From the NCBI GenBank assembly GCA_043813875.1, contig JBDRKP010000061.1, positions 1 to 26,992 of the forward strand: a stretch of 26,992 nt of DNA, given 5' to 3'. The stretch comes from an archaeon (GTDB lineage: Archaea > EX4484-52 > B79-G9). Under the pieces are notes generated by a model. It was not told where the DNA came from and did not search any database. It was given only the letters and a program-made list of their open reading frames with translations. Position 1 is the stretch's first letter, and the number at the start of each line of letters is the position of its first letter. Position numbers and translations under genes: made by a program. Shown here in pieces: positions 13,718-17,454 of the stretch.

Positions 13718-14048
13718 TTTTAAAACCCCCTCTATGACAAAAACCCCTGCCTTTACCAACAACTTTAAAATTTCCGCCCTCTATCTTTAGTGCCTTTCCA
13801 TTTACTATTACATCAGCTATTTTTCTCCTCGCAGATAAGACCAATCTATGAAATGTTGGCTGTGAGATATTCATTTTTTTTGCACATTCTTCCTGGTCAA
13901 GCCCTTCTAAATCTTTTAATCTCACAGCTTCAAATTCATCAACATTTAAAATAGCTTCTTCTAAATCAGCTAAAGGAACGCCTCTGGGCTTGAAATAGGT
14001 TATCTCCGGATTAAATCCTACTCTTCTGCAAAGTCTTGGTCTGGGCAT
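13695..14048 (-). CDS. DUF134 family HTH DNA-binding protein
   Basis: MPRPRLCRRV, YFKPRGVP, EFEAVRLKDLEGLDQEECAKKMNISQPTF...ARRKIAD...GKALKIEGG. Confidence 0.92.
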   Translation of the reverse strand: MPRPRLCRRVGFNPEITYFKPRGVPLADLEEAILNVDEFEAVRLKDLEGLDQEECAKKMNISQPTFHRLVLSARRKIADVIVNGKALKIEGGNFKVVGKGRGFCHRGGFKNEDSNSK

Positions 14049-14050
14049 AT

Positions 14051-14080
14051 TATGAATAATAATTCATATACCTATTTAAA
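14051..14080 (-). promoter_or_regulatory. TATA box plus 18-bp palindromic operator of the DUF134 gene
   Basis: TATGAATAATAATTCATA (14051-14068) lies 4 nt from TTTAAATA (14073-14080, minus strand). Confidence 0.7.
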
Positions 14081-14111
14081 GGTTTCCCGAAACAAAAAGA
14101 AAAGCAAGCAA

Positions 14112-14342
14112 TTACTTGATTTCTTTAAGTCTGTTTTCTATTGCCTGCTTTTCTGTTTCAATCTCTTTGAGTTCTGCTTCAAGGATTTTCTTTTCCTCTG
14201 CTTCCGTCAGGGTAACAGGTCGATTATATCTTAGACCCAATCCCCTGCCAAACCCTCTTCGCATACCACCGCCACAAGGGCCTAACCCTCTTCCAGCCAG
14301 GGACCCTTGTCCAACGGGTCCTGTTCCGTCTCTATTTGGCAT
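14112..14342 (-). CDS. DUF5320 family Gly/Arg-rich small protein (76 aa)
   Basis: MPNRDGTGPVGQGSLAGRGLGPC...GRG followed by a coiled-coil tail. GGAGGT SD upstream of ATG 14342. Confidence 0.88.
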   Translation of the reverse strand: MPNRDGTGPVGQGSLAGRGLGPCGGGMRRGFGRGLGLRYNRPVTLTEAEEKKILEAELKEIETEKQAIENRLKEIK

Positions 14343-14366
14343 TTTTATCAACCTCCATAGTTTAGT

Positions 14367-14396
14367 TATGAATATATATTCATATAACTATTTAAA
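14367..14396 (-). promoter_or_regulatory. TATA box plus perfect 18-bp palindromic operator of the DUF5320 gene
   Basis: TATGAATATATATTCATA (14367-14384) lies 4 nt from TTTAAATA (14389-14396), the same geometry as the 14051 site. Confidence 0.72.
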
Positions 14397-14494
14397 TGTT
14401 CCGATGTTTTTTGGTGCGGTGGGACTTCTAAAATATAGTCTGCTACGCAGAAATTGAAAATACATTTAAAAACTTTCAGCACGATAGATAACGC

Positions 14495-14551
14495 ATGTTC
14501 GGCTATCAGACAAAAAAATCAATATTAACACCCATACTCCCCGCTTACTGA
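14495..14551 (+). CDS. Putative leader peptide of the pro operon (MFGYQTKKSILTPILPAY)
   Basis: ATG lies 22 nt after TTTAAAAA (14465-14472), the leaderless position. Two CCC Pro codons near the end. Followed by a pyrimidine tract and alternative helices. Confidence 0.45.
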   Translation: MFGYQTKKSILTPILPAY

Positions 14552-14636
14552 TAGTCATAGATCTTTCTTTCTTACATAAAAGCGGTTTATGGCGAAACCA
14601 TGATCACTCAGATATAAGACCAAGGAGGTAAGAAAC

Positions 14637-14696
14637 ATGGAAAAGATGACAAAAGGTGGATGTAATCCCATACAGGAACGAACTCAAAGAATGTAG
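14637..14696 (+). other. SD-led uORF (MEKMTKGGCNPIQERTQRM) overlapping the proB start out of frame
   Basis: AAGGAGGT (14622-14629) precedes ATG 14637. The proB frame is +1 relative to it and is closed by TGA at 14647-14649. Confidence 0.5.
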
Positions 14697-15459
14697 GAGG
14701 ATAGTGATAAAGATAGGGACAAACACGATAATAGACAGCGACGGCAGATTCAACCACAGCCTGATAAGAAGCATCGCAGAGGAAATCCGCGATCTCAAAA
14801 AAGAAGAAAGACAATTCGCGATCGTCACAAGCGGCGCAATCGGCCTCGGCAACCGCCACATGGGCTGGAAAAAGACAGAAAGCATAGTAGACAACCAATG
14901 CGCCGCATCCGTCGGCCAGGCGCTCCTCATGCACGCCTACCACGACTGCTTCAAAGAACACGGCCTGATCGTCTCCCAGATCCTCCTCACATACTCAGAC
15001 ATCTTCGATCCCCGCCGGGAAACCACAATCAGAAACCTCACAAAAAGACTCCTAGAGACAGGAATGATACCAATCATAAACGAGAACGACTCCGTCTCCA
15101 CAGAAGAGATAAGCTTCGGTGACAACGACATACTCTCGGCCCACGTCGCAAGGCTCACAGAAGCAGACCTACTGATACTCCTCACAAACACAGACGGCCT
15201 CTACAGGGACATAAAAAAAGAAGACACCATAAACGTAATAGAAAACATAGACCCTGAAATCAAAAAATACATAAGCGAAAAGAAATCACCAGACGGCAAA
15301 GGCGGCATGTCATCAAAACTCATCGCCGCAGAACTCGCAAAAGAATCAGGCATATTGACAGTGATAGCTAAAGGCACAGAAAAAGACATAATAAAAAGAA
15401 TACTGTCTGGAGAACACACAGGGACACTATTCAGCCTTAACGGAGGTAGAAAGAAATGA
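14656..15459 (+). CDS. proB: Glutamate 5-kinase (no PUA domain); true start uncertain
   Basis: RIVIKIGT, VTSGAIGLG, AASVGQ, QILLT, PIINENDSV, FGDNDILSA, GKGGMSSK. Confidence 0.93.
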   Translation: MDVIPYRNELKECRRIVIKIGTNTIIDSDGRFNHSLIRSIAEEIRDLKKEERQFAIVTSGAIGLGNRHMGWKKTESIVDNQCAASVGQALLMHAYHDCFKEHGLIVSQILLTYSDIFDPRRETTIRNLTKRLLETGMIPIINENDSVSTEEISFGDNDILSAHVARLTEADLLILLTNTDGLYRDIKKEDTINVIENIDPEIKKYISEKKSPDGKGGMSSKLIAAELAKESGILTVIAKGTEKDIIKRILSGEHTGTLFSLNGGRKK

Positions 15460-16229
15460 AGCTCGGGATCATAGGAACCGGAAACCTTGGAAAACCAATA
15501 ATAGACCGCATGATAGAAAACAACATCCACATAATGGCAAGCAGCAGGACACCTGCAACATACAGGGGACTGGAAATAACAAGCGACAACAGTCGCCTAG
15601 CAAAGGAATCAGAAATAATCATTCTCGCAGTAAAGCCCCAGTCCATGGATGAGGTCCTGGAAGAGATAAAAGACAACGTAAAAGACAAGCTCATCATAAC
15701 CTTCGCAGCAGGCCTGAAAATCAGCTACTACGAAAAAAGGACCGGCGCAAGAATAGCAAGAGTGATGACAAACATAGCGGTAAGATACGGCAAAGGCATA
15801 AGCGCATACACTCTCTCAAAAACCTGCACAGGGCAAGACAACAAAGAAGTTGAAAAAATCCTTAGATGCCTCGGAAAATCCATCAGGACAGAAGACGAAA
15901 ACGCACTTGATGTGATTACAGGCGTCTCTGGCAGCGGAATCGCATACTTCATAAAAATTATGGACATATTCCAGAAATCAGCCATACAACACGGCATAGA
16001 AGCGAAACAGGCAAAAACAGTAATAACACAGACCGTAAAAGGCGCTCTCGCCATGATGGAAAACACAGGACAGACAAACGATAAACTGATAAGAGAAGTA
16101 GCATCAAAGGGCGGGACAACCGAACAGGGCTTAAAGGAACTGGAAGAAAAAGAAATCGAAAAGATACTGGACGGCACCATAAAAAGAACCATAGAAAAAT
16201 GCAGATCAATAGGTGATGCATACGACTGA
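15456..16229 (+). CDS. proC: Pyrroline-5-carboxylate reductase
   Basis: IGTGNLG Rossmann motif, LAVKPQ, RVMTN, TGVSGSG, VASKGGTT. Confidence 0.93.
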   Translation: MKLGIIGTGNLGKPIIDRMIENNIHIMASSRTPATYRGLEITSDNSRLAKESEIIILAVKPQSMDEVLEEIKDNVKDKLIITFAAGLKISYYEKRTGARIARVMTNIAVRYGKGISAYTLSKTCTGQDNKEVEKILRCLGKSIRTEDENALDVITGVSGSGIAYFIKIMDIFQKSAIQHGIEAKQAKTVITQTVKGALAMMENTGQTNDKLIREVASKGGTTEQGLKELEEKEIEKILDGTIKRTIEKCRSIGDAYD

Positions 16230-17454
16230 CATAAAAGATATCGCAGAAAAAGCAAAAAAAGCATCAATCAAAATATGTAGATTAGATACAGACGAAAAGA
16301 ACGAGATACTGAAAAACATGGCAAAAAGTCTCGACATGAACAGGGCAGAAATCCTCAAGGCAAACGAAATAGACGTAAAAGCCGCAAGAGAAAAGAACAC
16401 AAAAGAATCACTCATAGATAGGCTCGCACTCAGTGACGGGCGCATCAGCCAGATGATAGGATCCATTGAAGAGGTGATCAGGCTAAAAGACCACGTAGGT
16501 GAGATAATCACACAAAAAACCTTAAAAAACGGCCTGGAATTAAAAGAGATCAGAACAGCATTCGGCGTGATCGGCGTCATATACGAATCCAGGCCGAACG
16601 TGACAGTAGACGTTTCCACACTATGCCTGAAAAGCTCATCCGCAGTCATACTCAAAGGCGGCTCTGAGGCGCAGAACACCAACAAAGCAATAGTAAGCGC
16701 ACTAAACACTGCCTGCCCAATAAAAGACGCCATCCAGCTGATAGAATCAACAGACCGGACAGCTACAAAAGATCTCATCCAGCTTGACCGCTACATAGAC
16801 CTCATAATCCCAAGAGGCGGAAAGTCGCTGATACACTTCGTGCGCGAGAACTCAAAGATCCCGGTCATAGAGACAGGCACAGGAAACTGCCACATATATG
16901 TAGACGAAAGCGCCGACATAGACGAGGCAATAAAGATAATAATAAACGCAAAAACCCAAAGGCCGGGCGTATGCAACGCAGCAGAAAAAGTCCTCGTACA
17001 CGAAAATATAGCAGAAGCGATACTGCCGAAACTGAGAGAAGAACTGATTAAAAAAAACGTAGAGATAAGAGGCGACAAAAAGACACAAGAGATAATCAAC
17101 TGTAAGCCTGCTACAGACGAAGACTGGCCAACCGAATACCTGGACCTCATAATAGCCATAAAGATAGTAAAAGACACACAAGAAGCGATAGACCACATCA
17201 ACATTTACGGCACAAGACACTCAGAAGCGATCCTGAGCAAAAACAAAAAGAACATAGACACATTCTTCAAAGAGATAGACGCAGCCGCAGTCTACTCGAA
17301 CGCCTCCACAAGATTCACAGACGGCGGTGAGTTCGGCCTTGGCGCAGAGATAGGCATAAGCACACAGAAGATGCACGCAAGAGGCCCGATGGGACTGATT
17401 GCGCTCACCACGACCAAGTACCTCATAACCGGCAACGGTCAGATCCGGACATGA
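16216..17454 (+). CDS. proA: Gamma-glutamyl phosphate reductase
   Basis: GVIGVIYESRPNVT, LKGGSEA, IPRGG, GVCNAAE (catalytic Cys), NASTRFTDGGEFGLGAEIGISTQKMHARGPMG. Confidence 0.96.
   Translation: MHTTDIKDIAEKAKKASIKICRLDTDEKNEILKNMAKSLDMNRAEILKANEIDVKAAREKNTKESLIDRLALSDGRISQMIGSIEEVIRLKDHVGEIITQKTLKNGLELKEIRTAFGVIGVIYESRPNVTVDVSTLCLKSSSAVILKGGSEAQNTNKAIVSALNTACPIKDAIQLIESTDRTATKDLIQLDRYIDLIIPRGGKSLIHFVRENSKIPVIETGTGNCHIYVDESADIDEAIKIIINAKTQRPGVCNAAEKVLVHENIAEAILPKLREELIKKNVEIRGDKKTQEIINCKPATDEDWPTEYLDLIIAIKIVKDTQEAIDHINIYGTRHSEAILSKNKKNIDTFFKEIDAAAVYSNASTRFTDGGEFGLGAEIGISTQKMHARGPMGLIALTTTKYLITGNGQIRT

Follow-up and report, generated by a model that had tools for sequence, protein, structure and literature searches.

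A Pro-codon leader ORF overlapping archaeal proB out of frame: a candidate hungry-codon frameshift sensor

In the classical his and trp attenuators, codons for the end product in a leader open reading frame (ORF) sense charged tRNA via the ribosome, and the stalled ribosome refolds the RNA, freeing a terminator or a ribosome-binding site (RBS) downstream of the leader ORF. In eukaryotes, the second upstream ORF (uORF) of ATF4 overlaps the main start codon out of frame, and antizyme is made by a metabolite-sensing +1 frameshift. Here we analyze a 26,992-nucleotide (nt) stretch of archaeal DNA (lineage EX4484-52; B79-G9; contig JBDRKP010000061.1), called the window when its full length is meant, in which a 19-codon uORF with one Pro codon, designated uORF2, overlaps the beginning of proB (glutamate 5-kinase) in another frame. 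It is highly probable that uORF2 is a proline-sensing leader ORF of a lineage-wide family. That it acts by a hungry-codon +1 frameshift at AAT-CCC is a proposal drawn from sequence comparison, to which we assign a probability of about 0.5.

In the prfB +1 motif, CTT-T is combined with a Shine-Dalgarno (SD)-like stretch located 3 nt before it, with a stop codon, and with a C after the stop (PMC12421855). A 2016 recoding review (PMC5009743) describes the Ty1 +1 site CUU_AGG_C as driven by a slow A-site codon, the shift arising from shortage of the A-site aminoacyl-tRNA with CUU in the P site, and states that 'no examples are known' of starvation-driven hungry-codon shifts making useful trans-frame proteins. 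Mycobacterial leaderless short ORFs with polycysteine codons are likewise amino-acid-sensing leaders (10.1101/834739); as in the classical attenuators, their effect on a downstream start comes from refolding of the RNA. The Sinorhizobium meliloti sites uRBS10 and uRBS12 each provide an upstream ATG with its own SD, 7-16 nt before an out-of-frame main start (PMC13285730).

Structure and conservation of the uORF2-proB overlap

uORF2 (14637-14696; forward strand, as are all features given below unless stated) is preceded by the SD sequence AAGGAGGT (14622-14629), spaced 7 nt from the start codon ATG 14637-14639, and reads MEKMTKGGCNPIQERTQRM over 19 codons up to TAG 14694-14696. The proB gene (14656-15459; Pfam AA_kinase; NCBIfam proB, 243 bits with a cut-off of 186) lies in the +1 frame of uORF2. 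This frame is closed upstream by TGA 14647-14649 and open from 14650, and its first start codon, GTG 14656, falls inside uORF2, with no SD-like 5-mer at working distance before it. These sequence elements, though not the family matches, had been described in an earlier inspection of the letters alone (hereafter, the sequence-only reading) and were confirmed on the sequence, as were two +1 slip candidates, AAA-G at 14652-14655 and CCC-A at 14667-14670, and a further CCC-ATA at 14531-14536 inside an upstream leader ORF, uORF1. GTG 14656-14658 is contained in GGTGGA (14655-14660), the SD-like core of a module whose GGTGRN form is also found in the trpE, his, cys, and CimA-like leaders described below; GGTGGA ends 3 nt before AAT. 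The 16S rRNA of this genome has the tail GGATCACCTCCT, to which AGGAGGT of the uORF2 SD is a full match. The following dicodon, AAT CCC (14664-14669), consists of the proposed P-site codon and the Pro sensor, the latter being the proposed hungry A-site codon. Reading AATC as a single step gives an open trans-frame product, MEKMTKGGCNPYRNELKECRRIVIKIG..., without a stop codon.

In the proposed mechanism, ribosomes would load at the SD, start at ATG 14637, and read MEKMTKGGCN, at which point AAT (14664-14666) would occupy the P site and CCC (14667-14669) the A site. If Pro-tRNA were ample, they would read on to the TAG at 14694 and no ProB would be made, whereas scarce Pro-tRNA would leave the A site empty and lead to a +1 move into the proB frame. 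The shifted ribosome would make ProB with the N-terminus MEKMTKGGCN-PYRNELK..., and ProC and ProA would follow by coupling; GTG 14656 may contribute basal initiation. We infer that the frame change would be ribosomal, would happen at the Pro codon, and would rise with starvation.

The arrangement resembles prfB in that a short first ORF with an early stop is followed by a product open in the +1 frame, a candidate internal SD-like stretch lies a few nt before the shift codon, and a slow A-site codon would report a substrate of translation. The trpE module, GGT GGA TAC CTT TGG C, with its CTT-T run and following C, reads like the prfB motif with a Trp codon replacing the stop. Unlike prfB, the sensor is a sense codon (CCC for Pro), the genes are biosynthetic operons, the host is an archaeon, and the P-site codon in the window is AAT rather than the slippery CTT. 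With Ty1 it shares the shift upon A-site shortage; in Ty1, however, a permanently rare tRNA fixes the product ratio, whereas the codon here would report amino-acid supply. The single Pro codon of uORF2 and the two of uORF1, the latter ORF being Pro-rich and probably leaderless, are reminiscent of attenuator leaders. In contrast to attenuators, the enzyme frame starts inside the sensor ORF and not downstream of it, sensing mostly falls to one codon, and fold prediction gave no alternative structure of significance. The S. meliloti sites differ in that they have no amino-acid sensor codon and that the main genes have their own SD and start (PMC13285730). The ATF4 and antizyme systems are eukaryotic, dependent on scanning or polyamines, and without sequence relation to the module. 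No description of such a system was found in the full-text literature on archaeal and DPANN frameshifting and on amino-acid leaders, a coverage outside which subscription journals lie.

The comparison set consisted of 42 genomes in the phylum, searches at class and phylum levels giving the same 42 as the order. In G005, a genome of the same genus (ProB, 69% identical), the SD is kept as AAAGGAGG, the ATG follows 8 nt later and opens the 19-codon ORF MYKKTKGGRDPKQDRAKKI, and the proB GTG lies within the same 12-mer, ACAAAAGGTGGA, as in the window. In G040, from another family (ProB, 48% identical), GAGGTG and ATG lead a 20-codon ORF, MYDEIKNGECLPFERKTEGC, with the proB GTG again in the +1 frame. 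Comparison of the proB 5' ends, which the sequence-only reading had proposed as a check, thus revealed a conserved frame offset in both relatives. The distance from the uORF ATG to the proB GTG is 19 nt in the window and G005 and 22 nt in G040, and the uORF2 stop lies 38 nt after the GTG at all three loci. The fifth codon from GGT encodes Pro in 3/3 proB loci and in one further contig fragment, the codon and its next base being CCC-A (window), CCT-A (G005), CCT-T (G040), and CCC-G (the fragment); the codon before the sensor is AAT-C, GAT-C, and CTT-C in the window, G005, and G040, respectively. In G020 (ProB, 36% identical), proB stands behind proA with a plain ATG and without such an overlapping ORF. 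Protein-guided scans of genome and metagenome contigs yielded only ProB relatives of ≤41% identity, mostly bacterial, which gave no leader information.

Two further ProB relatives are noted separately. In G025 (L004, contig C11), proB aligns only from residue 99 (the C-terminal two-thirds), and the upstream DNA does not hold the N-terminal part; this may be a truncated gene or a pseudogene, and G025 was left out of the leader comparison. P0007, encoded on a 1530-nt contig, begins with VIVFLVR at the contig edge and shows VIVFLLR again 42 residues on, at the normal N-terminus, a repeat that may represent a duplicated module or leader.

The same module before other amino-acid operons

The module was found first by a scan for strong SDs before short ORFs and then by a genome-wide pattern search. 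Its layout is an SD or promoter, ATG, GGT-GRN, two codons, the sensor codon, and a nearby stop, the enzyme being encoded in the +1 frame. In each family, the amino acid of the sensor is that of the pathway: Pro at proB, Trp at trpE, His in the his leader, Cys at cysK and SerK-like genes, and Ile at CimA-like genes. On contig C43, in a context nearly identical to that at proB, the ORF METIMGEYRCNQRTHYT overlaps the +1-frame GTG of a ParB-fold gene adjoining cysteine synthase, the NCBIfam model that fits this gene best being that of serine kinase SerK (59 bits, short of the cut-off); this leader ORF is kept in six relatives, with the Cys codon in 5/6. A second Cys module (MTGGHICGTKK) stands at the head of the cysK operon, and both Cys modules use TGC as the sensor. 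At trpE (Pfam Anth_synt_I_N and Chorismate_bind), the ORF MGGYLWRGKY reads GGT GGA TAC CTT TGG. The CimA-like synthase (NCBIfam citramalate synthase CimA, 385 bits, below the cut-off and above the isopropylmalate synthase models) has the leader ORF MKRDQTTKTGGCFIAR, reading GGT GGC TGC TTT ATT. The his leader carries three modules, ending ...CTT CAT, ...TTT CAT, and ...ATT CAC.

Among the relatives, Trp is the sensor in 9/9 trpE leaders from two families and Ile in 5/5 CimA-like leaders, and His persists throughout the modules of two his leaders in G005 and in two leaders of another type (G020 and G031). Over all loci compared, 35 of 36 modules bear a cognate sensor (proB, 3/3; SerK-like, 6/7; cys, 1/1; trpE, 9/9; CimA-like, 5/5; his, 11/11), a count that overstates independence because the genomes compared are kin; the sole non-cognate module is the SerK-like leader of G027. 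Pro and Cys suggested the cognate rule, for which His, Ile, and Trp then served as tests, and the probability that these three all match by chance is ~5e-5 within G000, the metagenome-assembled genome to which the window belongs. A wider module scan of G000 was too noisy and found no cases beyond eight. From these comparisons, the chances seem to us evenly balanced that the lineage runs a regulon of frameshift attenuators (Pro, Trp, His, Cys, and Ile so far), with one hungry end-product codon each.

If the regulon exists, the his leader would chain three such +1 steps. In G000 it occupies 164-708 of contig C65 (L062). Its modules 1 and 2 are spaced 16 nt apart, so that a +1 step at the first brings the second into frame. 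A +1 step at module 2 leads into an ORF of 41 codons, and the stop of this ORF overlaps, as TGATG or ATGA, the ATG of module 3, which is SD-led; a +1 step at module 3 opens an ORF of ~100 codons (108 codons in G000, without a Pfam match), whose stop overlaps the hisG ATG. Both G005 copies preserve this whole arrangement. The last ORF of the G005 his leader may, from its sequence, correspond to an AbrB-type DNA-binding fold. The leaders of G020 (L097) and G031 (L098) are built differently: an SD-led ORF of 33-34 codons ends in ...CSPHSHF or ...YCPHSYF, CCC then C stands directly before the His codon, and hisG is joined in the +1 frame without a start codon. The f6 his leaders have no SD-like stretch comparable to GGTGGA near the shift codon.

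As for the surroundings of the Cys modules, the one in the cysK operon (C43, L050, 123-476) opens a 64-codon low-complexity ORF in the +1 frame, whose stop overlaps the ATG of an SD-led, Cys-rich ORF of 51 residues with no family match, and cysteine synthase comes next. At the SerK-like locus L053 (G003), ~35 codons are inserted after the Cys module and before the conserved domain, and the insertion keeps to the +1 frame of the module.

Entry into the enzyme frame and competing explanations

Four loci were found in which no ATG, GTG, or TTG is present between the upstream stop of the enzyme frame and the conserved N-terminal motif of the enzyme: hisG of G020 (40 codons), hisG of G031 (21), trpE of G031 (14), and the SerK-like gene of G022 (28). 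At each of them, an ATG-led sensor ORF overlaps in the -1 frame; two of the four leaders are also without GGTG. In 18/36 modules, the sensor is preceded by a slippery codon, CTT or TTT (4/8 in G000, p = 2e-4), and CCC then C occupies this place in two more, the G020 and G031 his leaders. The linkers from module to CimA-like enzyme differ in length, at 16, 16, 20, 23, and 23 codons, and are all in frame. The start-less loci, the codons before the sensor, the linkers, and the phasing of the his modules all favor a ribosomal +1 step at the sensor codon. The four residues V-D/N-V/A-F/I, read from the proB GTG onward, also head unrelated proteins behind other modules and occur in only 3/1482 ORFs genome-wide; they look module-derived, since unrelated proteins behind modules share a sequence that is otherwise rare in the genome. 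The idea of the sequence-only reading that ProB depends on a +1 shift sensitive to tRNA-Pro finds, in its general form, strong support by comparison in the leader family and further support in the start-less loci, while the slip of CCC to CCA by which it had explained the shift is not.

Several observations weigh against a shift at AAT-CCC. The P-site codons AAT (window) and GAT (G005) re-pair poorly after a +1 move, and only G040 has CTT. The next A-site codon in the +1 frame is CCA, also Pro, so that a ribosome in a cell generally short of proline would stall a second time. One leader, that of the CimA-like gene in G005, has no ATG in the sensor frame, and the kinship of the genomes tempers the count of cognate sensors. 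Aragorn detected 15 tRNAs in the assembly and none for Pro, so that no argument from tRNA supply is possible. The other contrary points concern GTG 14656 and speak for the main rival, to which we give a lower but real probability, in which ProB starts ordinarily at this SD-less codon and uORF2 regulates as an overlapping ORF that occludes or modulates a weak start, its Pro codon making uORF2 traffic proline-dependent in a way not yet understood. GTG is the first proB-frame start codon at all three loci, a GTG in the +1 frame occurs in 31/36 modules as part of the conserved GGTGRN, and the GTG equivalent to 14656 is the called start in 19 of the 32 ProB relatives with a placeable IVIK motif (34 were fetched). 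Starts without an SD are normal in this genome, where only 373/1482 long ORFs have an SD-like 5-mer near the start. Among the three proB sequences, two of the changes in the four codons that precede the sensor are synonymous in the proB frame and none is so in the uORF frame, favoring a GTG start; the same test over all families gave three for each frame and decides nothing. Past the sensor, it is the enzyme frame that is under constraint (35 vs 20). The S. meliloti precedent also fits, since occlusion by an upstream RBS positioned 16 nt ahead of the main ATG reduces translation of the main ORF (PMC13285730), and the SD-led, out-of-frame start of uORF2 likewise lies within ~20 nt of GTG (19 nt; 22 nt in G040). 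An ordinary GTG start gives the wrong sign for a biosynthetic operon, however: a ribosome waiting at the sensor would cover GTG 14656, which lies 8 nt before the P site, so that stalling would shut off initiation there rather than turn it on, and starvation would lower ProB. Only a frame change gives the right sign. Nor can a GTG start explain the four loci without an enzyme-frame start codon; it leaves the CTT/TTT enrichment before the sensor and the 16-nt phasing of the his modules unexplained, and the residues after GTG look like a by-product of the module, not the N-terminus of ProB.

The route originally suggested, in which peptidyl-tRNA-Pro slips from CCC (14667-14669) to CCA in the P site while ATA waits in the A site, would yield the same peptide as a shift at AAT-CCC. 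The sequence permits it in the window (CCC-A) and in the related contig fragment (CCC-G), and slippage of tRNA-Pro is plausibly used in the lineage, because CCC-C precedes the His codon in the G020 and G031 his leaders. We nevertheless consider it improbable: the site is not conserved, as CCT-A in G005 and CCT-T in G040 do not re-pair; ATA, at 43% of Ile codons in G000, is the commonest Ile codon, so that no slow A site would be expected (CCC accounts for 20% of Pro codons); and the cognate codons of other modules (TGG-C, CAT-C, TGC-A, and ATT-G) cannot re-pair after a +1 move. A Pro codon conserved at a fixed place fits a hungry A-site codon better, as far as sequence comparison goes. Even less credence is due to termination at TAG 14694 followed by reinitiation, either back at GTG 14656 (38 nt) or onward at GTG 14704. 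The constant stop-to-GTG distance at the proB loci agrees with such coupling, and overlapping stops and starts are used elsewhere in these operons, as at proB/proC and, in the form of ATGA, in both the his and the cys leaders. The forward site, AGGAGG-ATA-GTG (14695-14706) inside proB, proposed in the sequence-only reading as TAGGAGGATAGTG near the uORF stop, is rejected: its counterparts are AAAAAA-ATC-GTA in G005 and AAAAGG-ATA-GTC in G040, and the X1 contigs differ by 14697 G>A and 14706 G>A, neither of which alters ProB. Moreover, the stop-to-GTG distance ranges from 14 to 38 nt in other modules, more proline would give more termination and hence more ProB, and start-less loci could not be served. 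Finally, the source is a metagenome-assembled genome, in which a one-base deletion before GTG would join the frames; an artefact of this kind, whether an assembly error, a recent indel, or a chance SD-ATG without function, is scarcely credible. The frame offset recurs in G005 and G040, in an X1 contig of 1150 nt (covering 14452-14853 at ~85% identity, gap-free between 14563 and 14739, with a 2-nt gap at 14562 as the sole gap nearby), and in an X5 contig (covering 14539-14689 with 13 differences and 0 gaps), and the layout recurs at four other operons of G000; the error or indel that the sequence-only reading had allowed for is thereby excluded, as far as comparison can show.

If the frame change at AAT-CCC is real, it would constitute a new mode of amino-acid sensing by one ribosome at one codon, for which neither a regulatory protein nor a riboswitch nor any refolding of RNA would be needed. 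Hungry-codon frameshifting would for the first time be seen in nature to sense an amino acid and to produce a protein that the cell needs, and cellular genes of archaea would gain one of their rare examples of a programmed +1 shift. In so short and modular an element, a one-codon exchange would change the amino acid sensed. Furthermore, pathways of uncultured archaea could be scored as broken, because gene callers mis-start or miss start-less enzymes (hisG, trpE, and SerK-like).

Genome setting, upstream leader, and operon

The window is contig C61 of G000 (1.64 Mb in 90 contigs, 91.5% complete), and related ProB proteins carry the source label 'Candidatus Woesearchaeota archaeon'. An A+T peak 24-30 nt before start codons (811 upstream regions, G000) is the mark of leaderless transcripts, and leaderless translation seems to be the rule in this genome. 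Since SDs are rare here, a perfect SD before the 19-codon uORF2 is unusual. GGAGG occurs 11-16 nt before the first in-frame start in 41/1482 long ORFs, the uORF2 site (-13) being at the mode of this spacing; judging from these frequencies, the SD-ATG pair of uORF2 is more than chance. The few perfect SDs of G000 include those of the sensor ORFs.

Upstream of uORF2, the TATA-like box TTTAAAAA (14465-14472) lies 23-30 nt before ATG 14495 and recurs with equal spacing in G005; from its position, it is likely to be the promoter of a leaderless proB-operon transcript. The ATG opens uORF1 (14495-14551), which reads MFGYQTKKSILTPILPAY-stop with two Pro codons and is probably leaderless, because TTTAAAA is found 24-30 nt before it and no SD is present. 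Behind the same box, the counterparts are MQDYQLDPSPVPPHY (four Pro codons) in G005 and MSNDMEQFPNPPRFF (three Pro codons) in G040, and the 7-mer TAGTCAT after the uORF1 stop is invariant in the window, G005, and G040. An internal promoter for a leaderless proB mRNA starting at GTG 14656 was considered as well and rejected, the sequence 24-30 nt upstream being AGGTAAG, not an A+T-rich box. The RNA run X2 covers only 14305-14400 and 15014-15192 of the window.

A pyrimidine tract (14562-14575) follows uORF1; within it, TTTCTTAC (14568-14575) can base-pair with GTAAGAAA (14628-14635), next to the SD of uORF2. The minimum-energy fold pairs this tract with the SD region, with a z-score of +0.94, which is not significant. 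Single-sequence folds of the three proB leaders were no better than those of shuffled sequences (z, +0.94, -0.43, and -1.84), and for this reason no RNA structure is claimed. Covariation between the window and G005 is seen in two stems, 14501-14509/14548-14556 and CCGCTT/AAGCGG. It may be conjectured that uORF1 gates access to the uORF2 SD. A small hairpin is predicted directly over the Pro sensor and just after it in G005 (L002, 1500-1521) and G040 (L003, minus strand, ~2278-2257), with a counterpart of 3 bp in the window. A search of Rfam over 13900-15000 gave no credible family, the sole match being a microRNA model (E = 0.19).

Downstream, proB, proC, and a proA-like gene are consecutive with overlapping stops and starts. 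The ATG of proC (pyrroline-5-carboxylate reductase, 15456-16229) overlaps the proB stop, and the proA-like aldehyde dehydrogenase gene (16213-17454), identified by a match to the Aldedh family only, begins with a GTG within the end of proC. On the opposite side of the leader, an A+T-rich palindrome, TTAGTTATGAATATATATTCATATAACTA (14352-14385), lies between the proB leader and a divergent DUF5320-like gene (14112-14351, minus strand).

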